Below are positions 6,773-38,172 of a stretch of DNA of 64,000 bases, piece after piece. Source of the stretch: Candidatus Latescibacterota bacterium (lineage in GTDB: Bacteria; Latescibacterota; UBA2968; GCA-2709665); NCBI GenBank assembly GCA_965222075.1, contig OZ244937.1, forward strand, positions 4,416,001 through 4,480,000. The letters are read 5' to 3'. The position numbers were made by a program, and so were the translations under genes. The notes beneath the pieces are model-generated. The model searched no databases and was not told the origin of the DNA. It worked only from the letters and a program-made list of their open reading frames with translations. Position 1 is the stretch's first letter, and each line of letters starts with the position of its first letter.

Positions 6773-6801
6773 CCGTTGCGGCGAAGGGAAGGAGATCAAC
6801 C

Positions 6802-6866
6802 GTGAGCAATACCCGGCCGAATATCCTGTATATTATGTCCGACGCCACGCGTCGCACGCGATGAGC
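6802..6866 (+). pseudogene. Sulfatase 5' stub
   Basis: AAGGAG RBS, then GTG...MSNTRPNILYIMSD, frameshift, HASHAMS, then the gene stops. Confidence 0.6.
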
Positions 6867-6917
6867 CCTACGAAAAAGAGGATTAGCTGCAATCAGCACA
6901 GCAAGGAGGTGTTCCTG

Positions 6918-7824: not shown

Positions 7825-7950
7825 TCACAGCACAGAATGGGCATGGTGGACGCCCGGCTGCGACTGTGGCCCGGGGAATTGCCGGGGTATCTCTTTTCCT
7901 GCAAGGGGGTGCAGCGCATAGCGCTGCCGAAGGCAGGGAGGATTTTGAAT

Positions 7951-9306
7951 ATGGCTCAAAACGTTTCTGAACGCCCAAACGTTCTCGTATTTTTCACGGA
8001 TCAGCAGAGGTGGGATACTACGGGGGTGCACGGCAATCCGATGGGGCTGACTCCCAACTTTGACGCTATGGCCCGGCGGGGGACGCACGCTGCCTATTCG
8101 TTTACCTGTCAGCCGGTCTGCGGGCCGGCCCGGTCCTGTTTGCAGACGGGGTTGTACGCCACGACGACGGGTTGCTTCAAGAACGGCGTTCCCCTCCCAC
8201 AGGATGCACGGACCCTGGCCCACCACTTCCGGGATGTCGGGTATACGACCGGCTATATCGGGAAGTGGCATCTGGCGGGTGAAGAGCCGGTGCCCGAAGC
8301 AAAACGGGGTGGATATGAGTACTGGCTGGCATCGAACGCCCTGGAGGGCACGTCCGATGCCTACGATACGGTGATGTACGACAGCGAGAACCGGGCGGTG
8401 AAGCTGCCCGGGTACCGGGTGGACGCGCTGACAGACGCGGCCATCCGCTATATCGACGTCCAACAGTCGGAACCGTTTTTCCTTTTTGTTTCGTACTTAG
8501 AGCCGCACCACCAGAACCGCTGGGACGATTATCCTCCGCCGGACGGGTACCGGGAACGCTATACCGGGGGGTGGATGCCGCCCGACCTTGCGGGGCTGGG
8601 CGGCTCGGCCCACCAGCACCTGGGGGGATACTACGGGATGGTGAAGCGGCTGGATGAGGCGCTGGGACGGATTTTGGACGCTTTGAAGAGCCTGGGGTTG
8701 ACGAAGAAGACCGTGGTACTGTTTACCTCAGACCACGGATGCCATTTCAAGACGCGGAATGCAGAATACAAGCGTTCCTGCCACGAGAGTTCGATCCGGG
8801 TGCCCACCGCGCTTCAGGGCCCGGGGTTCGACGGCGGAGGACAGATCCAGCAACTCGTGAGTCTGGTCGACCTGCCGGCAACGCTGCTGGACGCGGCGGG
8901 AATACCGGTGCCGGCGGAGATGGAGGGTCGGTCGATCCTGCCACTGACCAGGGGGCAGACCGATGGGTGGCCTGAAGAGGTTTTCGTCCAGATCAGCGAG
9001 GCGCAGGTGGGGCGGGCCGTGCGGACCCACCGCTGGAAGTACGGGGTGGACGCTCCGGACAAACACGGGGGGCGCGATCCGAACTCCGAGCGATATGTCG
9101 AGCAATATCTGTACGATCTGGAGGCCGACCCGTACGAGTTGGCCAACCTGATCGGCGCGGAGTCTCACCGGGAGGTGGCGGCGGTGATGCGAGAGCGTCT
9201 GATCCGGCGGATGACAGAGATCGGGGAGGCAGCGCCCACGATCGAGTCGGCACCCTCCCATCGAATGGGGCAGAGACGGGTACCGCCGGAAGTGATCGGG
9301 AGCTAA
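7951..9306 (+). CDS. Sulfatase (S1)
   Basis: RPNVLVFFTDQQR, CGPARSCLQTG, GKWHL, SDHG; GGAGG RBS before ATG 7951. Confidence 0.92.
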   Translation: MAQNVSERPNVLVFFTDQQRWDTTGVHGNPMGLTPNFDAMARRGTHAAYSFTCQPVCGPARSCLQTGLYATTTGCFKNGVPLPQDARTLAHHFRDVGYTTGYIGKWHLAGEEPVPEAKRGGYEYWLASNALEGTSDAYDTVMYDSENRAVKLPGYRVDALTDAAIRYIDVQQSEPFFLFVSYLEPHHQNRWDDYPPPDGYRERYTGGWMPPDLAGLGGSAHQHLGGYYGMVKRLDEALGRILDALKSLGLTKKTVVLFTSDHGCHFKTRNAEYKRSCHESSIRVPTALQGPGFDGGGQIQQLVSLVDLPATLLDAAGIPVPAEMEGRSILPLTRGQTDGWPEEVFVQISEAQVGRAVRTHRWKYGVDAPDKHGGRDPNSERYVEQYLYDLEADPYELANLIGAESHREVAAVMRERLIRRMTEIGEAAPTIESAPSHRMGQRRVPPEVIGS

Positions 9307-9371
9307 CCAAGCGCTGGGCCCGCGCTCAGCATTTCAGAAAGAGGGATATTCAAACCTGAGGAGGGTGTGCA

Positions 9372-11402
9372 ATGGCTGATGTTGTGCTTGCAAAAATCGA
9401 TCTTTCAGGCTGCCCGGAGGGAAGGGTGTTCGACCGGCCGGAACTGGATTGGAGTGTCGAGGATCGTCACTTCCCCGACTGGGAGTGTCCTCTGGCCAGA
9501 ATACGGAGAAAGGAACGCGGCCCCGGCAGGCCCAGTTCGTTCCGGGTGCTTGAGGAGAACGGCAGGCCGGTCCTGGACCATGTCGACATGACCGATCGGC
9601 CGCTGGTTGTGGGCGATTTTTTGTGGAAAGACTACTCGGTGGAGGCCTATGTCCGCCAGATGGCCGCCACCAGCAAACCCAATTCGGACGATCCGTACTG
9701 TTTTGTGGGCCGGAGCGGGTTGATGTTCAGGTACCGGACATTGAGGCAGTACTATTTCTTTTGCATCGAAGGCTACGATCGGCTGGTGCTCTACCGGCGG
9801 GAGCACGCGCACTGGCACGTGTTGGGCGAGCAGACCGTGTCGGTGGACCGGTCGTGTTACCACCGCCTCAAGGCCGAGTGCCGGGGGGACCGGATCGTTT
9901 GTAGTTTCGACGGGCGGCAGTGCCTGGTGGCGAACGACAACGCCTACCAGACCGGCCGTGCGGGCGTCCGGACCTGCACGCGGGCGAGGTTTCACGACGT
10001 CAGGGTAGTGGCTACCGCAGCCCAGAACGCGGCGTTTATCGACACGCGGAGCTGCTATGAAAAGGAGGTGGCAGCCGAGCGGGAGAAGTATCCAGGGCTC
10101 GTCCTGTGGAATGAGATCGATCCCAGGGGTTTTGGCGGAGGGGTGCCCGTGTTCGGAGATATCAGGGGCAGCCTTGAGACGGAGCTACTGTTGTTCCAGG
10201 ATCCCCCAAATGGGGAGGGTGCGCCGCGGATCCGGGCGGTAAGCTTGGAGGGGGAGCAGGTGTGGGAAATGGAATATTCGAAGTTGAAGACGGTCGCTCC
10301 GAAGCGGACGGTGATACAGGACATCGACGGGGACGGCGTGAACGAGCTGGTATCTGCCGGCGGAAACCGGCTGTCGATCGTGGATGCGGTGACCGGGGAG
10401 TTGAAGGCGGAAGCGCCCCTGCCCGAACCCGGGCCGTTTCTGGTGCCCCGCGGCCAGCCCCTGACCGATGAGTACCTCCACGTGCAGCGGGCCATTATTC
10501 CCTGCAACCTGCGGGGGAATTCCAGTCCCCGGGATTTCATCCTCAGGGATGGCGTCCCGGGGGGAAGCGGATGGACGATCTGGGCCTATGACGAGCGGCT
10601 CAACCTGCTGTGGCAGCAGCACGCGGACGCGCCCTGGTACGGGCATTCCGTCTATTTCTACGATGTGGACGGCGACGGCCGGGACGAGGCGCTGTCGGGG
10701 TACCACCTCTACGACGATGACGGGAGCCTGATCTGGCGGATGGAGGGCGCGGAGTACATCGAGATGCACGACCATGTGGACAACATCGTTTTCGGGGAGA
10801 TGGACGGGAACGAGGAGAATGGGCCTGAGATCGGCATTGCCGGAAGCAGCGAAGGGTTTTTCTTAGTGGATGCGCGCGACGGCCGGGTGCGGCGGCAGCA
10901 CCGAATGGGCCACTCCCAGGATGTCTACGCGGGGAATTTCAGGCCCGACCTGCCCGGGCTGGAAATGTGGGTGGGCGACCGGTGGGACTCGTACGGCCTG
11001 CTGGTGCAGTTCAGCGGGGCTGGCGATCCGCTCCTCTCCCTTGAGCCTGACAATGTCAGCCAGTCCGGGCCTGCGGTAAACTGGAGCGGAGATGGGCAGG
11101 AACTGTTGCTGTTGAGCACGTCGGTGCGAGCGCTGGGGATGTACGATGGGTACGGGCGGAAAGTCGTGGAATTTCCGGGAGATAAGCCGGCGGTTCCTCC
11201 TGGAAAGCCGTTCTGGCGCTCCTGGATCAGCGCGCAGCAGATGGACTTGATGGGGGATGCGCGGGATGAGGTCGTGTTGACCCGTGATGGGGTGCTGTAC
11301 ATCTACACGCAGGACACGCCCTTTCCCAAAGGTGAGAAAATCTACGCGCCGGTCCGGAGTGGGCATCTCTCCTCCCCAAACTGGGAAATCAACGGAGGAT
11401 GA
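9372..11402 (+). CDS. Concanavalin-like N-domain + FG-GAP/PL11 (rhamnogalacturonan lyase)-like beta-propeller, paralog 1
   Basis: DIDGDGVNE and GHSVYFYDVDGDGRDE Ca-binding repeats, GHSQ...FRPDLPGLE; no signal peptide. Confidence 0.7.
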   Translation: MADVVLAKIDLSGCPEGRVFDRPELDWSVEDRHFPDWECPLARIRRKERGPGRPSSFRVLEENGRPVLDHVDMTDRPLVVGDFLWKDYSVEAYVRQMAATSKPNSDDPYCFVGRSGLMFRYRTLRQYYFFCIEGYDRLVLYRREHAHWHVLGEQTVSVDRSCYHRLKAECRGDRIVCSFDGRQCLVANDNAYQTGRAGVRTCTRARFHDVRVVATAAQNAAFIDTRSCYEKEVAAEREKYPGLVLWNEIDPRGFGGGVPVFGDIRGSLETELLLFQDPPNGEGAPRIRAVSLEGEQVWEMEYSKLKTVAPKRTVIQDIDGDGVNELVSAGGNRLSIVDAVTGELKAEAPLPEPGPFLVPRGQPLTDEYLHVQRAIIPCNLRGNSSPRDFILRDGVPGGSGWTIWAYDERLNLLWQQHADAPWYGHSVYFYDVDGDGRDEALSGYHLYDDDGSLIWRMEGAEYIEMHDHVDNIVFGEMDGNEENGPEIGIAGSSEGFFLVDARDGRVRRQHRMGHSQDVYAGNFRPDLPGLEMWVGDRWDSYGLLVQFSGAGDPLLSLEPDNVSQSGPAVNWSGDGQELLLLSTSVRALGMYDGYGRKVVEFPGDKPAVPPGKPFWRSWISAQQMDLMGDARDEVVLTRDGVLYIYTQDTPFPKGEKIYAPVRSGHLSSPNWEINGG

Positions 11403-12055
11403 ATCCAGAGCGTTCACGAAGAAGGGAGAGCTCAGCAGCCGAGAGATCCGAATCACCGCCTGAATCCGCATCCATACGGGCTCTGGCGCTGGGACTGGTG
11501 ATGGTGGTGGCGTCGATCGCCTACACCAACTGGGCAACCGTGCTGCTGCGGGCGTCCAGGGTGAACCGGTCTCACTTCCCGATGGGGCTGCTGCTCCCCT
11601 TTGCCGTGCTGGCGTTTCTCAACCTGCTGGTGCGACGGCCGGGGATCGCCAGGGCGCTCAGCCGGGGCGAACTCCGCGTTATCCTCGGACTGGGCCTGAT
11701 CGGCGCCTTTTTTCTCGCTTACGGACTCGCCGGCTACCTGGTGGGTGTAATCGCCGCCCCATACTACTTCGCCACCCCGGAGAATCGGTGGGCCGATCTG
11801 CTCCACGGACACGTTCCAGGCTGGGCCGTGCTGCGAAACGAGGACCTGGCCGCCACCCGGTTCTACGAAGGTGTCCCGTATCAAGGCGCCATGTCCTGGG
11901 GGGCATGGGTGGGACCGCTCTTCTGGTGGCTGACGCTGATTGGGGCCGTCAGCTGGAGCCTCCTGTGCGTGATGGTGATCCTCCGCAAGCAGTGGGTGGA
12001 ACACGAACGGCTGGAATACCCGCTGATGAGGGCGGGAATGCACCTGGCGATATAG
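11399..12055 (+). pseudogene. DUF6785-family membrane protein, truncated after N-terminal third
   Basis: SHFPMG, APYYFATPENRW, LRKQWVEHERLEYPL match the first ~215 aa of 12214..14202, then a stop. Confidence 0.75.
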
Positions 12056-12213
12056 GCGGGGCGGTCTGTTCGGTGGCGGCAGGACACGGGCGCAACTGGG
12101 GCTGAGGCGCGGTGACGGGGTGTTACGGCCCGCCGCTACGGTGAGGACTTTGCGCTTGTGCCCATGCCGGCCGGGAAAACGGATACATCGGTTGGCGTTA
12201 TATATGACAGGGT

Positions 12214-14202
12214 ATGAAGAGTGGGGATGTTCAGATGAGTTGGAGCGCACCGGAGGTCGCTGTTGAAGAGGTGTCGGCGCCGCAGAGCCGTCTGGGGGTG
12301 ACGAGGCGGTCGATTCTGCTGGGCCTACTGCTGGTCTGCGCCGAAGTTGCGGTGATTACCTTCTCGGAGCCGGTCGTCCGGTCGTCGCAGATGAACATCA
12401 GCCACTTCCCCGTGGGGTTTTTTATGTGGTTCGTGGCGGTGGTGTTGTTTTTGAATCCGCTGCTGAAGCGAGTGGGTGTACGGTATGGCCTGTCCTCTTC
12501 GGAGCTGTTTGCAATTGTCGCAGTGGGACTGATGGGGGCGCACGTGCCGAACAGCGGGCTGGTGGGGTTTTTTCTGGGGATGCTGGCCGCGCCCTATTAT
12601 TTTGCCTCGCCGGAGAACCGGTGGGCGGAGTTGCTGCACCCGAACATCCCACCGTGGCTGGTGCCCACCGACGAAAGGGGTGCCCTGCAAGCGTTTTTCG
12701 AGGGCGCGCCGGATGGGTATGCGATCCTGTGGCACGTATGGGCCGTGCCGCTGTTCTGGTGGCTGTGCCTGATCGGAGCGATGGCGTTTGCGCTGCTGTG
12801 CATTGCGGTGATGCTGCGCAAGCAGTGGGTGCAGAACGAGCGGCTGGTTTATCCCTTGATCTCTCCGGTGTCGGAGCTGAGCGCCGGGTCTGAATCGTCG
12901 CAGTTGCTGCCGCAGGTTGCGTATAACCGGCTGTTCTGGATCGGATTCGGACTCGGGTTCGGCATCCTGGCCTGGAATATTGGGGCATATTTCCTTCCGA
13001 GCTGGCCCCGGATCTATTACCATGGAAGGTGGTGGGACTTTCTGTACGGCTTTCCCCGGATGACGAGCCGGATCAACATGTATATCATTGGATTCGGATA
13101 TTTTGCCAATGTAGATGTGCTGTTCAGCCTTTTGTTCTTTTACCTTCTCTACTGGACGCAGACGGGCATCTTCAACCGGATGGGCTACAATTTGGGACCC
13201 GGGACGGGGACAGCGGCGGCCTGGGAGAGCACCGGCGGGCTGTTTGCGCTGGTGGGGTGGGGAATGTGGACGGCACGCGGACATCTCCGGGAGGTGGTGC
13301 GCAAGGCATTGGACCCTGTGTGTCCGGTAGACGACAGTGGAGAAATGCTTTCCTACCGGACAGCTTTGTTCGGGTTTTTGCTTGGTACAGTTTTTTCGGT
13401 ATCGTGGTTGTACGCTGCCGGCGTGGATCTGGGAGTGGCGCTGCTGGTGTTGGCAGTGACCTATGTAACCTATGTGGGGCTGGCAAAAGTGGTGTCGGAA
13501 AGCGGGCTGCTTTACCTGAGCTGGACGGTAGGGCCTCAGGCCCTGGTGACGGGGGCGTTGGGATCTGTAGCGATGGCGCCGGGCAGTATCCTTACCTCGA
13601 TGGCCTTTACGGTTGGCCTGTGCGCCCATTGGAAGGGGATATTCATGTCGGGGTTTGCGCAGGGGGCCAAGCTGGCCGGCCTGACCGGGGGCAACCGCAG
13701 GCGTGTGGCGATAGGGATGGGCCTGGCCCTGGCGGTGGGCATCCTGCTTTGTCTCTACCTGAGCCTGGGATGGGGCTACGAACACGGGGCGTATAACTTC
13801 GGCGGTACTCCGTTTCGGGCCGGCCGCCATTCGTTTCAGCAAGCAGCCGCCCAGATTCTAAATCCCGAGGGGGTCGCCTCCAGGCGGTTGGTGTTTTTTG
13901 GCATTGGTGTTGGGGTGATGTCCGTGCTCACGTTCCTCAGGTACCGGTTGTCCTGGTGGCCAGTCCACCCAATCGGCTTTGCGATTGCGGGAAACGGCCG
14001 GGCGACCAAGTCGGCGTTTTCGGTTTTTATCGCCTGGACGCTCAAGTTTCTAACGCTGCGTGTGGGCGGGGTGACGCTCTACCGGCGGTTCCGGCCGCTT
14101 TTTGTAGGACTGCTGTCAGGGTATTCGCTGGGAGTGGGTCTGGGTTTTGCGGTGGACGCGGTCTGGTTCCGCGGACAGGGACACTGGATCCATCTCTACT
14201 GA
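12214..14202 (+). CDS. DUF6785/DUF6784-family polytopic membrane protein (putative transporter)
   Basis: Many hydrophobic segments; RKQWVQNERLVYPL and WWPVHPIGF motifs; start could be 12235. Confidence 0.8.
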   Translation: MKSGDVQMSWSAPEVAVEEVSAPQSRLGVTRRSILLGLLLVCAEVAVITFSEPVVRSSQMNISHFPVGFFMWFVAVVLFLNPLLKRVGVRYGLSSSELFAIVAVGLMGAHVPNSGLVGFFLGMLAAPYYFASPENRWAELLHPNIPPWLVPTDERGALQAFFEGAPDGYAILWHVWAVPLFWWLCLIGAMAFALLCIAVMLRKQWVQNERLVYPLISPVSELSAGSESSQLLPQVAYNRLFWIGFGLGFGILAWNIGAYFLPSWPRIYYHGRWWDFLYGFPRMTSRINMYIIGFGYFANVDVLFSLLFFYLLYWTQTGIFNRMGYNLGPGTGTAAAWESTGGLFALVGWGMWTARGHLREVVRKALDPVCPVDDSGEMLSYRTALFGFLLGTVFSVSWLYAAGVDLGVALLVLAVTYVTYVGLAKVVSESGLLYLSWTVGPQALVTGALGSVAMAPGSILTSMAFTVGLCAHWKGIFMSGFAQGAKLAGLTGGNRRRVAIGMGLALAVGILLCLYLSLGWGYEHGAYNFGGTPFRAGRHSFQQAAAQILNPEGVASRRLVFFGIGVGVMSVLTFLRYRLSWWPVHPIGFAIAGNGRATKSAFSVFIAWTLKFLTLRVGGVTLYRRFRPLFVGLLSGYSLGVGLGFAVDAVWFRGQGHWIHLY

Positions 14203-14279
14203 CCTTATCCATCCACGGGCCTATGTGTCACCTCAGAGTACTGTTGGCCCTGGCTCGATTGTCTGGCTGGTGCCACGGT

Positions 14280-14727
14280 CGGGGCATTTGTTACGATTGG
14301 CGACCACGTGGTGATCCTGCAAAACGTCGGTTTGTCCCACGATGACACCGTCGGCGATTACACCTGCATTGCCGTAGGAGTTGGTTTTTCGGGAAGTGTT
14401 CGTGTGGGGAGAAACGGTTCAATCCACAGGGGGGAGTTGATGAGACCGACGGCGATGGCAATCTTGCGCCATTTCATCCTTTGCGCAGCGGTGCTTCTGG
14501 CGGCCGTGTCGGCCGGGGTCGAGGTGCCTCCGGAACCACGCAACCGGGTCCGCAATCCGAGCTTCGAACTGGACGCGGACCGGGACGCCCGCTATGCATG
14601 GCTCATTTCGGAAGGGCTCAAGATCGACAACTGGCCTCCCCCGGGCGGACTCGTGACAGACCTCTTCTTCCTGGGGAATTTGAAAACAGCTTCTCAGCAT
14701 TTCAGAAAGAGAGACATTCAAACCTGA
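14280..14727 (+). pseudogene. Fused fragments: hexapeptide acetyltransferase piece + signal-peptide stub of a secreted protein
   Basis: TIGDHVVILQNVGLSHDDTVGDYTCIAVGV hexapeptide pattern; then GGAG RBS, ATG 14440, signal peptide and NRVRNPSFE. Confidence 0.5.
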
Positions 14728-14739
14728 GGAGGGTGCGCG

Positions 14740-16755
14740 ATGGCAGACGTTGTGGTCGCAAAAATCGACCTCTCGGATTGCCCGGAGAGGATCGTGTTTG
14801 ACAGGCCGGATCTGGACTGGAGTATCGAGGAGAGCTATTTCCCGGATTGGGAGTGCCCCTTAGCCGACGTGTACCGGAGGCGGCCAAGCGTGCTGCGGGT
14901 GCTGGAGGAGGACGGCAGACGGGTGCTGGACCATATCGATATGACCGACCGGCCGCTGGTTGTGGGCGATTCTCTGTGGGGGGACTACACGGTGGAGGCC
15001 TGTGTCCGCCAGATGGCCGCCACCAGCGAGCCGAACTCGGACGATCCGCACTGTTTTGTGGGCCGGAGCGGGTTGATGTTCAGGTACCGGACATTGAGGC
15101 AGTACTATTTCTTCTGCATCGAAGGCTACGACCGACTGGTGCTCTACCGGCGGGAACACGCGCACTGGCACGTACTGGACGAGCAGACCGTGCCGGTGGA
15201 CCGGTCGTGTTACCACCACCTCAAGGCCGAATGCCGGGGGGGCCGGATCGTTTGCAGTTTCGACGGGCGGCAGTGCCTGGTGGCGAACGACAATGCCTAT
15301 AAGACCGGGCGAGCGGGCATCCGAACCTGCACGCGGGCGAGGTTTTACGATGTGAAGGTGACGGCTACGGCTTCCCAGAACGCGGCGTTTATCGATACGC
15401 GGAGCAGGTATGAGAAGGAGGTGGCGACCGAGCGGGAGAAGGTTCCGAAGGCGGTGCTGTGGAGGGAGATCGATACGAAAGCGCTCGGCGGAGGGGTGCC
15501 CGTGTTCGGGGACATCCGGGGCAGCGGCGAGACGGAGCTGCTGTTGTTGCAGGATGCCTTAAATGGGGAGGGTGCGCCGCGGATCCGGGCGGTGAGCTTA
15601 GAGGGGAAACAGGTGTGGGAGATGGAGTACACGGAGCTGAAGACGGTCGCTCCGAAGCGGACGGTGATACAGGACATCGACGGGGACGGCGTGAACGAGC
15701 TGGTATCTGCCGGCGGAAACCGGCTGTCGATCGTGGATGGGATGACGGGGACGTTGAAGGCGGAGGCGCCCCTGCCCGAACCCGGGCCGTTTCTGGTGCC
15801 CCGCGGCCAGCCCCTGACCGATGAGTACCTCCACGTGCAGCGGGCCATTATCCCCTGCAACCTGCGGGGGAATTCCGGTCCCCGGGATTTCATCCTCAGG
15901 GATGGTGTGCCGGGGGGAATGGGGTGGACGATCTGGGCCTACGACGACCGGCTCAACCTGCTGTGGCAGCAGCGCGCGGACGCGCCCTGGTACGGGCATT
16001 CCGTCTACTTTTACGATGTGGACGGCGATGGCCGGGACGAGGCGCTGTCGGGATACCACCTCTACGACGACGACGGGAGTCTGATCTGGCGGATGGAGGG
16101 CGCCGAGTATATCAAGATGACCGATCACGTGGACAACGTCGTATTCGGAGAGATCGACGGGGACGAGGAGAACGGGCCTGAGATTGGCATTGCCGGAAGC
16201 AGCGCGGGGTTCTTTCTGGTGGACGCTCGGGACGGTCGGGTGCTGCGGCACCACCGGGTGGGGCATTCGCAGGATGTGTATGCAGGCAATTTCCGGCCCG
16301 ACCTGCCCGGGCTGGAGATCTGGATGGGCGACAGGTGGGATAGTTATGGGTTGCTGGTCCTGTTCGGCGGGACGGGCGACCCGCTTTTTTCGTTCGAGCC
16401 GGACAACATCAACCAGGCCGGATCTGCGGTGAACTGGGGCGGAGACGGGCGGGAGTTGATGCTTTTGAGCACGTCAGTGCGGGCGCTGGGGATGTACGAC
16501 GCGTACGGGCGGAAAGTCGTCGAATTCCCGGACGACAAGCCGGCAGTGCCTCCTGGAAAGCCGTTCTGGCGGTCCTGGATCAGCGCACAGCGGATGGACC
16601 TGACGGGCGACGCCAGGGATGAGGTCGTGTTGGCCCACGACGGAGTGCTGTACATCTACACGCAGGACACGCCCTATCCCAAGGGGGAGAAGATCTACGC
16701 GCCGGTCCGGAAGGGTCATCTCTCCTCCCCCCACTGGGAGGTCCACGAGGAATGA
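14740..16755 (+). CDS. Concanavalin-like + FG-GAP/PL11-like beta-propeller, paralog 2
   Basis: Colinear and highly similar to 9372..11402, including the upstream leader. Confidence 0.7.
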   Translation: MADVVVAKIDLSDCPERIVFDRPDLDWSIEESYFPDWECPLADVYRRRPSVLRVLEEDGRRVLDHIDMTDRPLVVGDSLWGDYTVEACVRQMAATSEPNSDDPHCFVGRSGLMFRYRTLRQYYFFCIEGYDRLVLYRREHAHWHVLDEQTVPVDRSCYHHLKAECRGGRIVCSFDGRQCLVANDNAYKTGRAGIRTCTRARFYDVKVTATASQNAAFIDTRSRYEKEVATEREKVPKAVLWREIDTKALGGGVPVFGDIRGSGETELLLLQDALNGEGAPRIRAVSLEGKQVWEMEYTELKTVAPKRTVIQDIDGDGVNELVSAGGNRLSIVDGMTGTLKAEAPLPEPGPFLVPRGQPLTDEYLHVQRAIIPCNLRGNSGPRDFILRDGVPGGMGWTIWAYDDRLNLLWQQRADAPWYGHSVYFYDVDGDGRDEALSGYHLYDDDGSLIWRMEGAEYIKMTDHVDNVVFGEIDGDEENGPEIGIAGSSAGFFLVDARDGRVLRHHRVGHSQDVYAGNFRPDLPGLEIWMGDRWDSYGLLVLFGGTGDPLFSFEPDNINQAGSAVNWGGDGRELMLLSTSVRALGMYDAYGRKVVEFPDDKPAVPPGKPFWRSWISAQRMDLTGDARDEVVLAHDGVLYIYTQDTPYPKGEKIYAPVRKGHLSSPHWEVHEE

Positions 16756-16794
16756 GAAGATGATCCTGGATGAGCTTGTCATCGGCCTGCCATT
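16701..16794 (+). repeat. ~90-bp direct repeat, copy 1 (3' end of propeller gene + downstream spacer)
   Basis: Matches 25499..25587 with a few substitutions and a small indel. Confidence 0.9.
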
Positions 16795-17114: not shown

Positions 17115-18107
17115 ATGGCTACAATCAAAGATATTGCCCTGCTGACCGGGACTTCTTCTACAGCGGTTTCGTTTGTTCTGAACAATAAGGATCGAAAGCG
17201 GGTAAGCCCTGAAAAGCGTAAGGCTATACTCGAGGCCGCAAAAAAATACGGATATCGAAAAAACATCGCGGCCCGTGGGCTGGCGCTGAAGCGGACATTT
17301 AAAATCGCCACTTGTGTACAGGGATTCTTCGAGCAGCATCCTGTCTTCGGGTTCCTTGACCAGTACCAAACCATCAGTCTTCTCGCCCGGAAACTTCCAG
17401 CGATTGGCTATGGTATGGAGTTTGTCCAGGTTGATACAGAGGCGTCTCCTTCTGAAATCTCGAGGACATTAGCACAGGAGAAAGCAGACGGCTTTGTGTT
17501 TGCCTACTGGGACCCTCAGCTGCTGAGACGGGTTATTCCTTCACTCAAGCAGAAGGGAATACCGGCGGTTGCTCTTGGTACCATGCTGGGGAGGGACTAC
17601 GATTGGGCTGCGATCGATAGGGAAGGGGGATTCTGCAAAGCCACTTCCTACCTTCTGGGGAGTGGTCTGACAAGGATTGCGCTGCTCGATTGCGGCTTGG
17701 GGCTCTACGGAGGATCCAAACGGGCAGGATACGAAAAGGCCATGCAGGCGGCAGGATACTCGCCGCACCCTGTCTTTTCAGCCGAGTCGCCAAAGATCAA
17801 GCCGGTCAGTGAGGCGACGGAAAGGATGGTGGATGCCTGTCCTGAAATCGAGGCGGTGTTGATCTCAGAGAATCTCTTCGCGCCCACGGTGATGCATGCC
17901 CTCGGCGGTCGACGGGTGCGGATAATCGGATGCGGCGACCGTTGCTTTGCCAATATCTGTCACCCAAAGCTCTCGTACTTGGAGTTCCCCGGCAGAAAGC
18001 TCGTCGATGTCTGCATAGATAATGTGATCGGGCAAATCGAATCTCCCGACACGCACCGTTCGCGGCAGACGATCGTGGAATGTGACCTTGTGATTCAGGA
18101 GACCTGA
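17115..18107 (+). CDS. LacI-family transcriptional regulator
   Basis: ATIKDIALLTGTSSTAVSFVLN HTH, YRKNIAARGL hinge, periplasmic-binding-type C-domain. Confidence 0.92.
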   Translation: MATIKDIALLTGTSSTAVSFVLNNKDRKRVSPEKRKAILEAAKKYGYRKNIAARGLALKRTFKIATCVQGFFEQHPVFGFLDQYQTISLLARKLPAIGYGMEFVQVDTEASPSEISRTLAQEKADGFVFAYWDPQLLRRVIPSLKQKGIPAVALGTMLGRDYDWAAIDREGGFCKATSYLLGSGLTRIALLDCGLGLYGGSKRAGYEKAMQAAGYSPHPVFSAESPKIKPVSEATERMVDACPEIEAVLISENLFAPTVMHALGGRRVRIIGCGDRCFANICHPKLSYLEFPGRKLVDVCIDNVIGQIESPDTHRSRQTIVECDLVIQET

Positions 18108-18507
18108 TTGGGCGAAGGGGTGAAAGCGAGTTTTTGAGAAGGCCGTACATAAAAGAGCCGTTAGCCACCAACCTGGCGGGGAGGAAGCTAACGACTCGGA
18201 GGATTGAAAAGATCGCAAAGTCCCTTCAATCACAAAAATACCGACCTACAGATTCTTCGTATCAATGTCAAGCAGAAAAAGGGGTGATATTTGAGTTGAA
18301 AGAAAATAAGCTCGTTTAATAATCTGGTATCCCAGGGTGTTATTTCTGAAGGAGGTGATGCGAATCCATTTGTCGGTGATGAGTGGGGATCTGCGGCCGA
18401 CGTCGGGCTGGGGGATTGACAGCGAAACTTCCAATTCGGTTGTTTGACATCGGTGCGGGGTTGATGTTCTGCTTTTCCGGAGGTAACATCCAAAGGAGGA
18501 CGAAACG

Positions 18508-21500
18508 ATGAAGGCAAATAGATGGTTTCTCGCCGAGGTTCTGTTCCTGGTCGTGGCCCTGCCCTTTTCGAGCGCCTTTGCGGGCACGACGGGGAAGATC
18601 ACCGGACGGGTCACCGACGCAGCGGGATCGCCCCTGCCGGGCGCCAGCGTGGTGATTGAGGACACGCAGCGGGGCGCGATTACCGACGCGGAGGGCTTCT
18701 ATCTGATCCTGTTGGTGGACCCGGGCGCCTACGATCTGTCCGCGTCGCTGGTCGGGTATGCGAATGTGACGAAGCAGGATGTGAGGGTCACGGTAGATTA
18801 TACCTCGACGGTGAATTTCGAGTTGAGGGAGGAGGCGATCGAGGCGGCCGAGATCGTGGTGACCGCGGAGCGTCCGCCGGTGGAGTTAGACAAGACCACG
18901 ACGAAGTATATTGTGTCTGCCGAGGATATTGAGCAGACGCCGATCATCAAGACAACGGGAGAGTTCATCAAGCTGCAGCCCGGCGTGGATATGGCCGGGA
19001 GTTTCTCGGTGCGGGGTACGAATGTAGGCTATGCCGGGAATTTCAGGGTGCAGGGCAGTCCGTCCTACAGGGTTAACGCCGTTAATGTGGTGATCGATGG
19101 AGTCCGGATCTCCGGCCTGGACGGGGCAGCCGCCGCTCTGTTCACGGGGGTAAACAAGAGCGCGGTGCAGCAGATCTCGATCGAGACGGGCGTGACCCCG
19201 GCGGAGTACGGGGACGCGCGAGCGGGAACGATCAACATCGTCACGAAGGATGGTGGAAAGCAGTTCCACGGGTGGACGGAGGTCATCCTCGAGACTGCGG
19301 GTAAGAAGCACTGGGGTGCGAACATCTACGACGCCCCGGAGCACCGGGACCATATGAAGTGGGACGATCCGGAGTGGTTGAAGGAGACGGACCCGCTGAC
19401 GGGCCGGATCATCTACGTGCGGGAGGACTACACCAGCTACAACGGCATCGGCTTGGAGGGCACCCTGTCGGGGCCGGTAGGGTCCAGGGCGTCGTTTGTG
19501 GCCTCGTTGAAACACGACCGGCGGGCGCCCATCTTCCCGGACGCGACGAACCACGGCTTCTACAACGACACCGGGCACTATGTCAACGCCCCGAACAACA
19601 TCCAGGGGTCCGGGAGCATCACCTTTAAGCCCACGGGTAGCACGAAGTTTAAGGCCGGCCTGATCCTGCAGCGGTACACGGCGTTCAACAACGAGGTAAA
19701 CTTCCGCTTTCGGGGGGTCAATGGCTTTATCCGGGGACGTCACGGGAGGGCGGGGCTGCGCAATCTCTTCCTGCCGAAGGAGTGGGCGGCGTCGGGCAAG
19801 TACAACTACCAGGAGGACTTAGAGTACCTGACGTTGGCGCACGCCATCTCGCCGAAGACGTTCTACGAGGTGCGGATCGCGCGCAGCCACACGCACCAGG
19901 ACACGGTTGGCGCGCCTACCTTTACGGACAGACCGCGGACGGATAGGAGCGGATGGTTCTACATCGACGGGCAGGTGGCGACGTGGGCGCAGTCGAGGCG
20001 GACGCGGTGGAGCCTCAAGGCGGACCTGTCCAGCCAGCTCACGAAAAGGAACTTTGTGAAGACCGGCTTCGAGATCATCAGGTTCAACGTCTATTACACC
20101 CAGTGGGCGGCACTATCGAAGACGAACAACATGTTCTCATTCTACGCGGGCGGGGACGAGCCCTGGCGGATGGGCAGCCCTGCGACGCCGATCCGGGGCG
20201 GGGTCTACGTGCAGGACAAGATGGAGTTCGAGGGGATGATCGTGAACGTGGGCGTGCGTTTAGACTTCCAGAAGCACACGCACAAGGAACTGGTGAGTGC
20301 GGCGCTTATGCCGATGCCGATGTGGGCGTACTACAACACACGCCAGAATGCATACGCCAGCAGGTTTGCGAAGACGCCGCCGATGGAGTTTCACCTCAGT
20401 CCCAGGCTGGGGGTTTCGCACCCGCTCACGGACCGGATGAAGCTACACTTTTCGCTGGGCAAGTTCGTCCAGTGGGTCGACTTCTACGCCCTTTATGCGA
20501 AGACCTACTACAACGCAGGCAAGCTCGGTCCGGACGGGGATCCGAACTGGTTCGACGTGAACGGGAACGGGGTGAGGGATCCGGCCGAGACCTATGCCAG
20601 TATGGTGCCCGCAAACAGCGGCGTGAGCGCGGACCCGCACGACGCGCGCGCGGAGCAGGCGCTCACCTTTGAGGTGGGCACCGACTGGAACTTCGTGTCC
20701 GACTACACGGCGTCGGTGACGATGTTTTACCGGAGCGATACGAATAACTACGCGCCTCAGTTAGCCGGCTACGTCGGGCGGAGTATCGGGAGGAGCGGGA
20801 GGGGGGCGGCGAGCGATTATGCGGCCTTTAACAAAGGCTTCGAGGTGTCGGTCGGAAAGCGGCTGAGCCACTACTTCGGCTTCCGCGTCGGCTGGTATTT
20901 GCAGTGGGGGGCGAATGGCTGGATGGGTCTCGCGAACTCGCTTTCCCGCACGTTCGCCGACTCTAACTTCGTGTCTGGCCCGGATTACTTTGAGGCGTGG
21001 CAGCCGAACCCGGATGGGTCGAGGTCGCCGGTGGCGATGTCTCAGGAGGATACTGAAAAGACGGGCCGCAGCAATAACCAGCGCGCGCGGGCCTGGAGCG
21101 CGCAGTATGAGAACGACCATCTGACCTACTTCGGCAAGCATGCGGAGCTGAAGGACGAGGCATTCTACCGGGCCCTTCTCCCGTGGCCCGGGAATCCCGT
21201 CATGGTGGCCTACGGATCTACGGGCGCCCGCCTCGATTCCCAGACGAACCTGCAGTTTATTCTGAACACGCCCTCTGACGTCCGGTTCGGTCCCCGCTTC
21301 CTGGGCTGGCTGGCCAGCGACCTGAACGCGAACATGCTCTGGAAGCTGCGATCGGGCGACCGGGCCAGATGGGTGCCGCCGGGGTCGACATTCCAAGGCC
21401 GGCGGCTGGATCGGGGTGCGGTGGATGCGGCCACGGACCTGAGCGCGGAGAAGGTGTTCAACGCCAAAGGGAGGGTGCGCCCCTCCTTCTTCATCGAGGT

Positions 21501-21675
21501 CCGGAACCTGTTTAACGACAAGATCGATAGGAGCGGGGGGGCGAATTACATGCGGTGGGGCCTGCAGATGGCCCCCCCGGACAACAAGGACTTTAAACAG
21601 TACGGAGATACGGGGGACCGGAGCTACTACCGCGCCCCGAGACAGACGAACCTTGGCATCCGCGTGGTCTTTTAA
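18508..21675 (+). CDS. TonB-dependent receptor with N-terminal carboxypeptidase-regulatory-like domain
   Basis: Signal peptide, GTTGKITGRVTD...PLPGASV, plug motif AEYGDARAGTINIVTKDG, YVQDKMEFEGMIVNVGVRLD, SPRLGVSHP, C-terminal Phe. Confidence 0.9.
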   Translation: MKANRWFLAEVLFLVVALPFSSAFAGTTGKITGRVTDAAGSPLPGASVVIEDTQRGAITDAEGFYLILLVDPGAYDLSASLVGYANVTKQDVRVTVDYTSTVNFELREEAIEAAEIVVTAERPPVELDKTTTKYIVSAEDIEQTPIIKTTGEFIKLQPGVDMAGSFSVRGTNVGYAGNFRVQGSPSYRVNAVNVVIDGVRISGLDGAAAALFTGVNKSAVQQISIETGVTPAEYGDARAGTINIVTKDGGKQFHGWTEVILETAGKKHWGANIYDAPEHRDHMKWDDPEWLKETDPLTGRIIYVREDYTSYNGIGLEGTLSGPVGSRASFVASLKHDRRAPIFPDATNHGFYNDTGHYVNAPNNIQGSGSITFKPTGSTKFKAGLILQRYTAFNNEVNFRFRGVNGFIRGRHGRAGLRNLFLPKEWAASGKYNYQEDLEYLTLAHAISPKTFYEVRIARSHTHQDTVGAPTFTDRPRTDRSGWFYIDGQVATWAQSRRTRWSLKADLSSQLTKRNFVKTGFEIIRFNVYYTQWAALSKTNNMFSFYAGGDEPWRMGSPATPIRGGVYVQDKMEFEGMIVNVGVRLDFQKHTHKELVSAALMPMPMWAYYNTRQNAYASRFAKTPPMEFHLSPRLGVSHPLTDRMKLHFSLGKFVQWVDFYALYAKTYYNAGKLGPDGDPNWFDVNGNGVRDPAETYASMVPANSGVSADPHDARAEQALTFEVGTDWNFVSDYTASVTMFYRSDTNNYAPQLAGYVGRSIGRSGRGAASDYAAFNKGFEVSVGKRLSHYFGFRVGWYLQWGANGWMGLANSLSRTFADSNFVSGPDYFEAWQPNPDGSRSPVAMSQEDTEKTGRSNNQRARAWSAQYENDHLTYFGKHAELKDEAFYRALLPWPGNPVMVAYGSTGARLDSQTNLQFILNTPSDVRFGPRFLGWLASDLNANMLWKLRSGDRARWVPPGSTFQGRRLDRGAVDAATDLSAEKVFNAKGRVRPSFFIEVRNLFNDKIDRSGGANYMRWGLQMAPPDNKDFKQYGDTGDRSYYRAPRQTNLGIRVVF

Positions 21676-21714
21676 TTCAGGTTGGCGTTGAAACGTACTT
21701 AAGGAGGATAAGAT

Positions 21715-23334
21715 ATGAGAGCGCGACGATGGGCGACGTCGGCCGCTGCAGTCGGTGCGGCGCTGGTCCTTTCCGCGACGGCGGGGCTCCGGGAGGTATA
21801 CCCCCAGGAGTATGAAGTGATTACGGGGCCTTCGGCGCAACTCTACCGAAGCCTGCTTTCGACCGGCATCACGGCCCTGGGTTACCACGGGAGCTACCTC
21901 CGTGTCGGGAGTGGCGTCCCGATGAACTACCCGCGCAATATGGAGCCCCATAATGCACCGGAAGCCGGGGCCTACGGAGACACCCGGCTCAAGGGTACGA
22001 CCCAGCATCTTGCCTACTACATGTTCCAGCGCGCGGGCCACGGGGTGTGGACGTTTACCCAGGACGGGAGCGTGATCTACACGGGCCCCCGGCGGGACAA
22101 GGAGGAGCTGCTCGCGTCGGTGCAATACGACGTGAGCGTGGACCCGGACCTGTCGGTGCTAGGCACGGAGTTCTACCGGCACCGCCGGCCCGCAGTGAAG
22201 CTGGGAAACGGCCTGCCGTTTCCCAGCGGGTATGTGGAGACGCACCTGGGTGGGAACTGGTGGTCGGGTTCCGATCTGATCGAGAGGATCAAGGCCTCCG
22301 GTGAGGAGTCACCGGTCCACATTATGAACTTCAACCTCTCCGCGTACCCGACCTACGACGAGTGGCCCGAAGAGATCATCGTCACAAAGTGGACGAACGA
22401 CCAGGGGCTGACCTTCACGGAGCGGGTGTCCGCCTGGAGCCACCCCGACTTCGACGACCTCTTCATCGACGAATACGTGGTTGAGAATACGGGCGACACG
22501 AACGGGGACGGCGAGCCGGACGGGCCCGTGATCGCCCGGAACGACCTCTACATCGGGTTTATGGACCGGTTCGCTCCCAGCGCTACGGGGGCGCACGGGG
22601 GGGGCGTATACAATCATCAATGGCAGGACGAGCGGGTGAACCTCATGGACGATTGGTACGCTTACGACGGAGGGATCAAGCTGCTCTCCGTGCGGGACGG
22701 CGACCATCCGACCCTGCTCGACTGGGACGACACGGGCGATCCGTACAAGGCGGCGTTTGCATTCAAAAAGCTCGGCCAGCCCGAAGGCACGCTGCTGTCC
22801 CCCACGCAGGTGGGTGTGGGCGTGGTCGCGTATACGGACGATGCGGCCAGTTCTTACCGGTTCAATGCGCGGGATATGAAGGAGGGCTACGTGGCGCCGG
22901 AGGGGGACCAGCCCTACGCCGTGCGCTACTGGGAGTCGTCCTCAGAACAGTATCAGGAGGACCCCAGAGCGGGCACGACCTCGGACCAGGAGATCTACTC
23001 CGAGGTCGTGGGTGCAGGCCGCCGGATCCAGGAACCCCCGGCAGTTCCAAGCGGGCAGTTCTCCATGCTCCTCTTCGGGCCGTACGACCTGCCTCCCGGC
23101 GGAAAGGCGAAGATCGTGCTGGCCTATCTGGCGGGACATCCCGGCCAGGTGCTTGGGAATACGGACCCGTGGATGTGGGCATTTAAAGGCAATCAGGTCG
23201 AACTGCCCAGGGGCCTGGACGCGCTGAAGCAGAACTTCGAGGCCGCGCAGTTTGCCTATGACAATGCCTTTGACCTTCCGGACGCGCCGCCGGATGTGAA
23301 CTTCCGGACGGGCAGCAGCCGGATGCCGCTATGA
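21715..23334 (+). CDS. Secreted hypothetical protein, N-terminal part (probably one gene with 23331..24122)
   Basis: AAGGAGG RBS, Sec-type signal peptide without lipobox, DTNGDGEPD Ca-type motif, FGPYDLPPG. Confidence 0.75.
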   Translation: MRARRWATSAAAVGAALVLSATAGLREVYPQEYEVITGPSAQLYRSLLSTGITALGYHGSYLRVGSGVPMNYPRNMEPHNAPEAGAYGDTRLKGTTQHLAYYMFQRAGHGVWTFTQDGSVIYTGPRRDKEELLASVQYDVSVDPDLSVLGTEFYRHRRPAVKLGNGLPFPSGYVETHLGGNWWSGSDLIERIKASGEESPVHIMNFNLSAYPTYDEWPEEIIVTKWTNDQGLTFTERVSAWSHPDFDDLFIDEYVVENTGDTNGDGEPDGPVIARNDLYIGFMDRFAPSATGAHGGGVYNHQWQDERVNLMDDWYAYDGGIKLLSVRDGDHPTLLDWDDTGDPYKAAFAFKKLGQPEGTLLSPTQVGVGVVAYTDDAASSYRFNARDMKEGYVAPEGDQPYAVRYWESSSEQYQEDPRAGTTSDQEIYSEVVGAGRRIQEPPAVPSGQFSMLLFGPYDLPPGGKAKIVLAYLAGHPGQVLGNTDPWMWAFKGNQVELPRGLDALKQNFEAAQFAYDNAFDLPDAPPDVNFRTGSSRMPL

Positions 23335-24122
23335 CAGTGGACTGGCCCGTCTCGGTCGAGCAGGCGGCGCACCCGGACTACGGATCCGCGGATATTGCAG
23401 GCTACCGGGTCTACCGCTCGACCTGGTTCGACGTGGGGCCCTGGGAGTTGATCGCCGACTTCAAGGCCGGAGAGAGTCCGGAGACCACCTCCTACCGGGT
23501 GTCACGCGGGAATGAACCCGCGTTCGGTGAGCTGTATCTATTCGAGGACAAGACGTCGGTGGCCGGGTCCTTCTACCACTACAGCGTGCGCGTCTACGCC
23601 GACCCCCACGCGAGCTGGACCCCGGGCATCAGCGACCCGAGCGTTCACCCGCTTTCTATGGCGGACCTGCCGGGGCACATCGCCTCGCACGTGCAGGTGG
23701 GGCAGGAGGGGGGCTGGTCCGCATCGACCCAGCGAATCTACGCGGCCGAGTCGCCCTTTGCGATTCCATCGACGGCGTCGGAGGCGTCGGAGGCGAGGGT
23801 GCGGGTGGTGCCCAACCCCTTCATTGGATCCGGGTGGCACCAAGTTCCCGGTCAGACGTCGCATTCGTATGGGGGGTCCCCGAAGATCCGGTTCGTGGGC
23901 GTTCCGTCGCACTGCCGGATTCAGGTCTACTCGGTGTCGGGAGAACTGGTTTCCGACTTTATCCATACCAATTCGACCAGGGGGGAGGCCGATTACAATC
24001 AGGTCACGTGGACCAACAACGGACCTATCGCTACGGGGGTCTACTTCTGGGTGGTGGAGAACCTGATCGAGGGGTCCAACAAGGGAAAGATTCAGAGGGG
24101 CACCCTCATGGTGGTTCGATAA
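23331..24122 (+). CDS. FN3-like domain + T9SS type-A-like C-terminal sorting domain (C-terminal part)
   Basis: IAGYRVYRS (FN3-like); VRVVPNPF...IQVYSVSGELV...GVYFWVV...GTLMVVR CTD pattern; no signal peptide of its own. Confidence 0.75.
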   Translation: MTVDWPVSVEQAAHPDYGSADIAGYRVYRSTWFDVGPWELIADFKAGESPETTSYRVSRGNEPAFGELYLFEDKTSVAGSFYHYSVRVYADPHASWTPGISDPSVHPLSMADLPGHIASHVQVGQEGGWSASTQRIYAAESPFAIPSTASEASEARVRVVPNPFIGSGWHQVPGQTSHSYGGSPKIRFVGVPSHCRIQVYSVSGELVSDFIHTNSTRGEADYNQVTWTNNGPIATGVYFWVVENLIEGSNKGKIQRGTLMVVR

Positions 24123-24145
24123 ATACGACGAAGGAGGATAGAACC

Positions 24146-25129
24146 GTGAGAAAGTTTCGTTTGACACTCCTGCTTGCCGCGATGGGGATGCTCCTGCTTG
24201 CGCCTCCGGGCGGTGCGGTGGTGAAAGAGACCGTAGAGCGCCGCTCTGACACGCATAAATGGTCCGGGCTGGGCGGCTTTCAGTTCCTCAAGATCGGGCA
24301 AGGGGCGCGGCCGGTGGCGATGGGGGAAGCGTATATGGCCGTGGCCGACGACATCAACGCAATCTTCTGGAACCCGGCCGGGCTGACGGATGTCCGCAGG
24401 ACGGCCTGGACGGCCACGTATACGAAATGGCTGGTGGACTCCAACATCTTCAGTGGGGCGGTGGCCTGGAACACGGGCACGGCTCGGGGCGGTGTGCTGG
24501 GTTTGGGCGTGGTCGCCTTCCAGCCCAAAGACTTCGAGGAGACGACGATCTTCCAGCCCAACGGAACGGGGCAGAGCGTGTCGGTCGGGGATATGGGCAT
24601 CGGCGTGGTCTACGCGCTGAAGCTTACGGACAAGTTCTCGTTCGGCGCCCGGATGTCGTGGGTCCACCAGAGCCTGTATACGTGGAGCATCAATCAGTTC
24701 ACCCTGGACGTGGGGACGCGCTTCTACACCGGTTTCAGGAGCCTGCGCGTGGCCATGGCGCTGAAGAGCTTCGGTCCGGACAAAAGGATACTGCAGGCCA
24801 CCTTTGTCATGCCGCTCACGTATCACGTAGCCGCAGCCGCAGAACTCTTCGGGGAGAAGGGCGACCCGGGGTATCTGACGGTGACAGGGGAGACGCTGTA
24901 TGTGTCGGACTACGGCCTGCGCGCCCACTTAGGAGCGGAGTTGTGGCTGCAGAGCATCTTTGCGCTGCGAGCGGGCTACAAGTTCTCCTATGAGGCGGAC
25001 TCCTTCACCGTGGGTATGGGCCTGAAGTACGACATGCACGCCGACCGGGCGTTGACCGTGGACGTCTCCTACTCCGAGATGAAGCGTTTTAGCGCCCCCA
25101 TCCGGGTGACGATCGGAGGAGAGTTCTAA
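24146..25129 (+). CDS. PorV/PorQ-family outer-membrane beta-barrel
   Basis: FLKIGQGARPVAMGEAY.AVADD.NAIFWNPAGL signature; terminal Phe; AAGGAGG RBS before GTG 24146. Confidence 0.88.
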   Translation: MRKFRLTLLLAAMGMLLLAPPGGAVVKETVERRSDTHKWSGLGGFQFLKIGQGARPVAMGEAYMAVADDINAIFWNPAGLTDVRRTAWTATYTKWLVDSNIFSGAVAWNTGTARGGVLGLGVVAFQPKDFEETTIFQPNGTGQSVSVGDMGIGVVYALKLTDKFSFGARMSWVHQSLYTWSINQFTLDVGTRFYTGFRSLRVAMALKSFGPDKRILQATFVMPLTYHVAAAAELFGEKGDPGYLTVTGETLYVSDYGLRAHLGAELWLQSIFALRAGYKFSYEADSFTVGMGLKYDMHADRALTVDVSYSEMKRFSAPIRVTIGGEF

Positions 25130-37650: not shown

Positions 37651-37678
37651 ACGTGGGGCCGAATGAGGAGTATATGGA

Positions 37679-38026: not shown

Positions 38027-38043
38027 GCCGTTTGAAACCGGGT

Positions 38044-38130: not shown

Positions 38131-38141
38131 TAATGAAAACA

Positions 38142-38172
38142 AAGGCTTACGTCGATTTGACGTAAGCTTTTT
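38142..38172 (+). terminator. Rho-independent terminator after tRNA-Leu
   Basis: GCTTACGTC-GATTT-GACGTAAGC followed by TTTTT. Confidence 0.8.

Follow-up and report, generated by a model that had tools for sequence, protein, structure and literature searches.

Within the type IX system of protein secretion (T9SS), all type A C-terminal domains (CTDs) are described as being recognised by the barrel PorV, and type B cargo depends on cognate PorP/SprF shuttles encoded directly downstream (PMC12618676). The CTD of PorU stays on PorV and that of PorZ on PorQ, and cognate PorV-like barrels have been suggested to shield CTDs from cleavage (PMC10202324). Here we describe a three-gene cassette at positions 18508 to 25129 of a 64-kb stretch of DNA (contig OZ244937.1, positions 4,416,001 to 4,480,000; the whole of this stretch is hereafter called the window). 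The closest genome records to the window belong to Candidatus Latescibacterota, and not to the Bacteroidota setting implied by an earlier note on this DNA. The cassette encodes a TonB-dependent receptor, a secreted protein that ends in a T9SS-type CTD (the middle protein) and a barrel of the PorV/PorQ family. We read it as one copy of a conserved outer-membrane uptake cassette of the Fibrobacterota-Chlorobiota-Bacteroidota (FCB) group, in which the receptor has a lipid-free partner that is exported by the T9SS and tethered by the barrel, and we put the probability of this reading at roughly 0.55. The earlier note had proposed both halves of this interpretation. Anchoring of the middle protein by a locus-specific barrel is now supported by conservation, by domain likeness and by a predicted complex with clean controls; the role of the middle protein as the substrate-capture partner of the receptor we infer because the two pair one-to-one in the manner of SusC/SusD and because of the glycan context.

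The features of the cassette, counted from the first base of the window, are the following:

18508..21675, + strand: TonB-dependent receptor, 1055 residues, with CarboxypepD_reg and Plug domains (Pfam)
21715..24122, + strand: middle gene, about 802 residues if intact, encoding a signal peptide, N-domain, FN3 domain, linker and CTD
23317..23320, + strand: frameshift site in the middle gene, placed by DNA alignment with the related locus L001 and by the intact protein P0001
23805..24122, + strand: CTD of the middle protein, residues 698-802, delimited by AlphaFold strands, the predicted complex interface and the CTD matches of the family
24146..25129, + strand: PorV/PorQ-family barrel, 327 residues (NF033709), with a GTG start behind AAGGAGGA

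The gaps within the triplet are 39 and 23 bases, and each holds a AAGGAGGA ribosome-binding site. The open reading frames (ORFs) and their Pfam and NCBIfam matches agree with the layout given in the earlier note, namely a receptor of 1055 residues, a secreted protein of about 800 residues and a PorV-family barrel, downstream of a LacI gene. Several of its smaller observations hold as well. No SusD-family match was found by Pfam among the 59 ORF translations of the window that were scanned. The N-terminus of the middle protein is hydrophobic and free of cysteine, with an A-Q cleavage-like site in relatives (read from the sequence), and the signal peptide of the barrel likewise has no cysteine, so that neither protein has a lipobox. 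The FN3-like domain is present in the AlphaFold model as strands between residues 531 and 629.

Conservation and co-diversification of the three genes

A scan of one genome per species with the middle protein gave 290 relatives, and 71 loci were kept. A receptor homologue lies directly upstream of the middle gene in 70 of these and a PorV-like homologue directly downstream in 70; the exceptions, L051 with just 361 bases upstream and L031 ending 36 bases past the middle gene, lack a partner gene because their contigs end. All 38 downstream ORFs that were sampled exceeded the NF033709 cutoff (132.7-186.7 bits). The loci come from Latescibacterota (44), Rhodothermota (17), Gemmatimonadota (7) and Bacteroidota (2), with one further record, and as many as five cassettes occur in one genome, five being present in the nearest relative of the window's genome. 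The SusD Pfam family was absent from 66 flank ORFs of ten related loci. The earlier note had named three outcomes that would speak against its reading, a triplet that is not conserved, a C-terminus unlike a CTD and the lack of a predicted or observed interaction; the first did not occur, given the presence of the triplet in 70 of 71 loci and in four phyla, which is more than chance would give.

Co-diversification, which the earlier note had proposed to examine, was assessed on 64 complete cassettes. Left out were L001, L008, L029, L032 and L055 (truncated receptors, with the middle gene of L055 also split), L031 (no barrel gene) and L051 (no receptor gene). Pairwise distances correlated at 0.99 between receptor and middle protein, 0.98 between middle protein and barrel and 0.98 between receptor and barrel, and the three genes fell into seven identical clusters (adjusted Rand index 1.0), with correlations of 0.88-0.98 within clusters. 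When partners were exchanged between cassettes within a genome (15 genomes, 200 trials), r fell to 0.67-0.69. The three-gene unit is intact down to about 33% identity between paralogues. The three genes are thus kept in order and diversify as one unit.

The family is larger than these loci. When 1.84 billion cluster representatives were searched with a profile, there were 424 matches at E <= 1e-30 and 2888 at E <= 1e-10, of which those weaker than 1e-30 may reflect just the FN3 domain or the CTD. The Rhodothermales-type subfamily by itself accounted for 537 clusters at E <= 1e-20. An atlas look-up gave 29 clusters from Gemmatimonadota, Ignavibacteriota and Bacteroidota, and by the names of the sources the family also occurs in KSB1, Calditrichota, Ignavibacteriota and Marinimicrobia.

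Further genes accompany the cassette in some lineages. A GWxTD/TPR protein of 810-950 residues is carried by 34 of the 71 loci, a small outer-membrane barrel of about 250 residues stands just before the receptor in 31, and a DUF6785 membrane protein lies within 10 kb in 32, a loose association. No homologue of the small barrel or of the GWxTD/TPR gene was found in the window, and a full-text literature search for GWxTD returned no paper. Cassettes of different types share homologous versions of both of these genes, as seen in L002 (5900-6685, 358-2847), L006, L010, L016, L034, L046 and L049. In all 19 Rhodothermota and Bacteroidota loci a second FadL/BamG-like barrel follows the PorV-like gene. 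The next genes in the Rhodothermales loci L045 and L048 encode heparinase II/III-type and beta-helix proteins, the latter carrying Por_Secre_tail.

Individual loci show other arrangements. One Latescibacterota genome has an IS5-family transposase (240 bits) between the middle and PorV-like genes (L052, 12588-13388). A second CTD-bearing protein followed by a 315-residue ORF stands beside the cassette of L016 (1182-4283), and in L046 (17264-22454) and L063 (19823-22171) the first cassette has a second receptor gene downstream of it; these extra cassette-like genes suggest tandem arrays.

Domains of the cassette proteins and the predicted complex

In the AlphaFold model of P0001, an intact relative (51 aligned relatives; mean predicted local distance difference test score (pLDDT) 79.9, predicted template modelling score (pTM) 0.84), a large beta-rich N-domain of about 500 residues is followed by the FN3 domain, a short helical linker and a C-terminal sandwich. 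The CTD consists of seven strands (697-700, 724-728, 733-740, 745-752, 758-762, 775-783 and 793-800), and PorZ (5m11) is among the whole-chain Foldseek matches (rank 30, E = 4.4e-4). Among 51 family members, 17 match TIGR04183 at E <= 0.01, and its cutoff is passed by three of the 12 members scanned singly (L045, 23.8; L048, 24.9; L064, 24.0). The PorZ model is matched by 27 of the 51, where inspected only at profile positions 663-757 of 757, which are its CTD, and the CTD end of the PorU model by three; none of the 51 matches Pfam PF18962 at E <= 0.01. With a span of 105 residues the CTD is nearest to the uncleaved CTDs of PorZ and PorU, reported at 96 and 108 residues, the cleaved CTDs in the same source spanning 67-88 (PMC11285876). 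A C-terminus unlike a CTD, the second of the three adverse outcomes named in the earlier note, was accordingly not what we found, given the sandwich fold and the matches of the family to CTD models. Its more specific description of the domain as type-A-like has some support in the seven-strand fold and in the TIGR04183, PorZ and PorU matches within the family, and not in the window's own C-terminus, which falls below the TIGR04183 cutoff.

The barrel scores above the model of the PorV/PorQ family (NF033709, 156.1 bits against a cutoff of 90) and short of both equivalog cutoffs (PorV NF033710, 59.9 against 250; PorQ NF033711, 65.6 against 220). It does not reach the cutoff of Pfam PorP_SprF (15.5 bits, cutoff 22.3). 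Its profile matches Flavobacterium johnsoniae PorV in the PDB (6h3i_F) at 2.2e-24, and there are weak Pfam matches to Toluene_X (1.2e-4) and OMP_b-brl.

Modelling the proteins as a complex had also been proposed in the earlier note, and for the barrel and CTD an interaction is predicted, so that the third of its adverse outcomes did not occur either. Barrel residues 25-327 were folded together with residues 100-263 of the second ORF of the split middle gene, which comprise linker and CTD, using alignments paired by locus. The best of three controls scored 0.00, whereas the complex itself scored 0.89 over three runs, a mark reached by 116 of 157 solved complexes and by two of 215 mismatched pairs in a calibration that is only approximate, own alignments having been used here. 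At least 88% of contacts are common to the runs, the partner has a pLDDT of at least 70, and all confident partner contacts lie within the CTD (residues 158-263 of the second ORF). The predicted pair resembles solved complexes of PorV with cargo. The segment that links FN3 to CTD (window 23630-23800, residues about 640-695) hardly varies in the close family, and even distant members retain its G-x-E-S-G motif; this linker takes no part in the predicted interface.

The third gene might instead encode a channel of FadL type that serves a small substrate, hydrophobic or amphipathic, and has no binding to the middle protein. PorV is a member of the FadL superfamily, the weak Toluene_X (1.2e-4) and OMP_b-brl matches point in the same direction, and so does the second FadL/BamG-like barrel of the 19 Rhodothermota and Bacteroidota loci. 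The barrel of the window and those of all 38 sampled loci are, however, above the NF033709 cutoff, the complex score of 0.89 against 0.00 comes with an interface restricted to the CTD, and barrel and middle gene diversify together, and we regard such a channel as very improbable.

The N-domain was also modelled alone (mean pLDDT 73.0, pTM 0.84). Foldseek matched it to the N-terminal sandwich of enzymes of glycoside hydrolase (GH) families GH94, GH116 and GH149 with probability 1.0 and E down to 6.7e-7, and found in the model no counterpart of the catalytic domain of these enzymes. Neither Pfam nor NCBIfam assigned the N-domain to a family, the profile of the middle-protein family had no sequence match in the PDB, and whole-chain Foldseek matches had low TM-scores of about 0.1-0.23. 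Acidic residues, including D247, E253, D261 and D312, are invariant.

These properties bear on a different role for the middle protein, that of a barrel-anchored surface enzyme or adhesin acting upstream of the receptor (SusG-like or glycan-binding) and being neither its lid nor a direct partner, with genes that are merely co-regulated. The likeness of the N-domain to sandwich domains of glycoside hydrolases and phosphorylases and the many invariant acidic residues are what such a protein might show, and the T9SS-tagged lyases adjoining Rhodothermales loci indicate that surface enzymes belong to loci of this kind. We nevertheless consider this role unlikely: Pfam, NCBIfam, PDB sequence search and Foldseek gave no catalytic domain or family, and pairing with the receptor is as tight as pairing with the barrel (r = 0.99, identical clusters), which is the pattern of SusC/SusD, whereas accessory enzymes vary between loci.

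The receptor begins with a signal peptide, a CarboxypepD_reg domain (1.1e-19, residues 31-107), an EIVVTAERP stretch and a plug (2.2e-9, residues 130-240), followed by a large divergent barrel, which is deduced from the roughly 800 residues after the plug. The EIVVxAERP stretch is conserved ahead of the plug, and we take it to be TonB-box-like. The N-terminal layout is SusC-type, and the receptor falls short of the SusC/RagA model TIGR04056 (58.8 bits against a cutoff of 368.25, over residues 30-249 only). The receptor profile matched in the PDB the N-terminal domain and plug of a SusC homologue (8aa4, 2.6e-13), the plug of FepA (4.8e-15) and the plugs of CirA and YncD; the sequence by itself matched just a carboxypeptidase regulatory domain.

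Frameshift and genomic setting

In the window the middle gene is split into two overlapping ORFs, 21715-23334 (539 residues) and 23331-24122 (263 residues). DNA alignment with the 97%-identical L001 shows CC at 23319-23320 where that locus has CCC, one C being missing, and the intact P0001 (802 residues, 99% identical) reads GSSPDAAMTVDW at the frameshift position; both bear out the frameshift noticed earlier. Relatives encode a single protein (780-811 residues in 14 of 16 database matches), and a single middle ORF is present in 70 of the 71 loci, the gene being split in L055 only. The alternative that the two ORFs are separate genes coupled through an ATGA overlap was rejected on these grounds. 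The missing C could be either an assembly error or a real pseudogene mutation.

If it is real, the cassette of this genome might be a decaying pseudogene locus without function. Besides the deletion itself, the window has neither the small barrel nor the GWxTD/TPR gene that are present in the 66%-identical orthologous cassettes L002-L005, and a second gene, at 57701-59033, also looks broken. The deletion, however, lies within a homopolymer, as is typical of assembly errors, both halves of the gene are otherwise 95-99% identical to intact relatives without further stops, and the ribosome-binding sites are intact. On this evidence decay appears quite improbable, and a second broken-looking gene would favour indel errors in the assembly. 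At 57701-59033 a 131-residue ORF matches the first third of DUF1485 (M81 peptidase family), and a 310-residue ORF without a Pfam match starts 5 bases after it.

The following features upstream of the cassette are relevant to its setting:

9372..11402, + strand: RGL11_C/FG-GAP protein, 676 residues (Pfam RGL11_C 1.5e-7), with a paralogue at 14740-16755
12214..14202, + strand: DUF6785/DUF6784 polytopic membrane protein, 662 residues (Pfam 6e-104)
17115..18107, + strand: LacI-family regulator, 330 residues, upstream of the triplet (Pfam LacI 1.9e-10, Peripla_BP_3 4.7e-8)
18108..18507, + strand: intergenic leader, 400 bases, with a promoter-like site at 18296-18323 and an 11-nt inverted repeat (18155-18165 / 18187-18197)

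The features of the leader do not exceed chance (four promoter-like sites against 2.4 expected from shuffles), and a LacI homologue was found by tblastn near only one of the 71 related loci (L046), so the regulator is not conserved with the cassette. The glycan-catabolic setting described in the earlier note is evident from two sulfatases, from a pair of RGL11_C/FG-GAP proteins and from a fusion of GFO/IDH/MocA protein and 3-keto-disaccharide hydrolase; an M14 peptidase is also encoded in the window. The DUF6785/DUF6784 protein, with about 8-10 hydrophobic segments, is a candidate inner-membrane permease, and the RGL11_C/FG-GAP protein a candidate glycan-active enzyme of the locus. In L001 a DUF6785 gene and then an RGL11-like gene come directly after the triplet (4610-8928), whereas in the window the DUF6785 and RGL11-like genes lie upstream of it (9243-16769), with two copies of the RGL11-like gene that are 93% and 86% identical to that of L001. 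These differences in position and copy number imply a recent rearrangement and duplication in which the same partners were kept.

Two further observations concern the window at large. The GC skew flips sign within 36000-42000, with a cumulative maximum near 38-40 kb, which could be a replication terminus or origin region. A 344-residue protein at 38325-39359 consists almost entirely of ankyrin repeats (Ank_2 8.3e-61), which is unusual for a bacterium.

Proposed mechanism and comparison with known systems

In the mechanism that we propose, the middle protein would use Sec to cross the inner membrane and the T9SS to cross the outer one. Its own barrel would then take the CTD and keep it uncleaved, as PorQ does with PorZ and PorV with PorU, and would therefore stand in for the lipid anchor of SusD-type partners. 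The beta-sandwich N-domain would bind a glycan and hand it to the receptor, which would import it using TonB energy. The DUF6785-type membrane protein may carry the glycan across the inner membrane, and in this window the LacI repressor probably controls the operon.

A number of observations weigh against this reading. The window's own C-terminus scores 13.2 bits against TIGR04183 (E = 0.067), below the cutoff of 23, 34 of the 51 family members have no match to that model at E <= 0.01, and the class of the CTD is not clean, given that CHU_C (Pfam) is matched by 16 of the 51 at E <= 0.01, P0001 not being among them. Solved complexes of PorV with cargo exist (profile matches 6h3i and 8gl6-8gln), and the complex score may mirror likeness to these instead of binding by this particular pair. 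Correlated distances would also be expected from linked genes that duplicate together without any contact between their products. The Foldseek likeness of the N-domain is partial (TMq about 0.33), with no ligand site identified, and neither the single sequence nor the profile of the receptor gave a match of its barrel to any solved receptor in the PDB. The middle gene is frameshifted here, so that this copy is either inactive or misassembled. No T9SS core gene (SprA/Sov, PorK/L/M/N) was found among the 59 ORF translations of the 64-kb window, and Latescibacterota are not among the phyla given as possibly having a T9SS in the list of PMC11285876, which includes Rhodothermota and Gemmatimonadetes.

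An alternative is an arrangement independent of the T9SS, in which the receptor-like barrel exports or assembles the middle protein and the PorV-like barrel then anchors it. A model for such export is the Oar receptor, which exports PopC in Myxococcus. In its favour, the host phylum lies outside Bacteroidota, no T9SS core gene was seen in the window, and extra envelope genes (small barrel, GWxTD/TPR protein) accompany the cassette in 31 to 34 of the 71 loci. Yet the receptor retains, as importers do, a plug and the conserved EIVVxAERP stretch ahead of it, it has no match to the Oar-type barrel model of Pfam, ordinary Por_Secre_tail cargo is encoded beside the cassette in Rhodothermales carriers, and in the sources the middle protein has relatives annotated as T9SS sorting-domain proteins. 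This arrangement we regard as improbable, and we retain the T9SS-exported, barrel-tethered receptor partner as the preferred reading.

That the FCB superphylum has, parallel to SusC/SusD, another general way of building TonB-dependent glycan import is a broader claim that we make tentatively, at somewhat less than even odds. In this design the partner of the receptor would be a T9SS-exported non-lipoprotein, permanently docked through its uncleaved CTD in a cognate barrel of PorV/PorQ type, and the three genes would duplicate and specialise jointly for different substrates. The cassette is widespread and unannotated. Since glycan-uptake loci are predicted almost wholly from SusC/SusD pairs, such predictors would miss a SusD-free design, and polysaccharide use would be understated in the carrier phyla. 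If this broader claim is true, type IX secretion would be tied directly to nutrient-uptake machinery, and PorV-family paralogues would serve, apart from the secretion apparatus, as dedicated anchors in the membrane, a concrete role for the many unexplained PorV/PorQ-family paralogues. The mechanism is testable in Rhodothermus marinus, a cultured carrier whose alginate locus apparently has the cassette.

The earlier note had called the system undescribed. A full-text search, with subscription journals largely outside its reach, found no literature interpreting this architecture, and term searches of genome surveys of Gemmatimonadota (PMC10581226) and Latescibacterota (PMC12993501) returned nothing on such loci. 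The gene order itself, though, has already been drawn, uninterpreted, in the alginate locus of R. marinus MAT378 (PMC9530828), where a TonB receptor (2805 nt), a T9SS type A sorting domain protein (2181 nt), a PorV/PorQ family protein (1056 nt) and a hypothetical gene (1398 nt) are followed by alginate lyases (Fig. 2 of that paper). The corresponding genes of L048 measure 2856, 2244, 999 and 1401 nt including stops, the same order and sizes in a Rhodothermales locus. Homology of the R. marinus genes to those of the window is judged from annotation, order and size, and PMC9530828 assigns them no role, listing them among transporter genes and hypothetical ones.

Compared with SusC/SusD (RagA/RagB), the cassette likewise has a receptor of about 1000 residues with CarboxypepD_reg and plug, followed by the gene of a presumed surface protein that diversifies one-to-one with it, and again a genome has many paralogous pairs, in surroundings of glycan catabolism. 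Unlike SusD, the partner is neither a lipoprotein nor of SusD fold, the receptor misses the SusC/RagA model, and a third gene, that of the barrel, is obligatory. The type B cargo and PorP/SprF pairs of F. johnsoniae are cognate and specific, some cargo being statically anchored, and there too the gene of the shuttle or anchor lies directly downstream of the cargo gene (PMC12618676). The barrel here, in contrast, is of the PorV/PorQ family, type A and PorZ are the closer likeness for the CTD, and a receptor is part of the unit.

In the PorZ-PorQ and PorU-PorV pairs of Porphyromonas gingivalis an uncleaved CTD is held at the surface by a barrel of the PorV/PorQ family (PMC10202324, PMC11285876), as we propose here, and the CTDs of our family match the PorZ and PorU models at their CTD ends and are of similar length (105 against 96 and 108 residues). 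The cassette cargo differs in being no component of the secretion system and in being encoded between a receptor and its own barrel; several paralogous cassettes occur per genome, and the barrel stays under both equivalog cutoffs. The BamG-BamH pair of the Bacteroidota barrel-assembly machine is similar in that a FadL-type barrel holds a surface-exposed protein via extracellular loops (PMC12578637), and is different in belonging to an assembly machine, with no CTD and no linkage to a receptor. The novelty of the cassette lies in the combination of two known principles, TonB-dependent glycan loci and cognate pairs of CTD and barrel.

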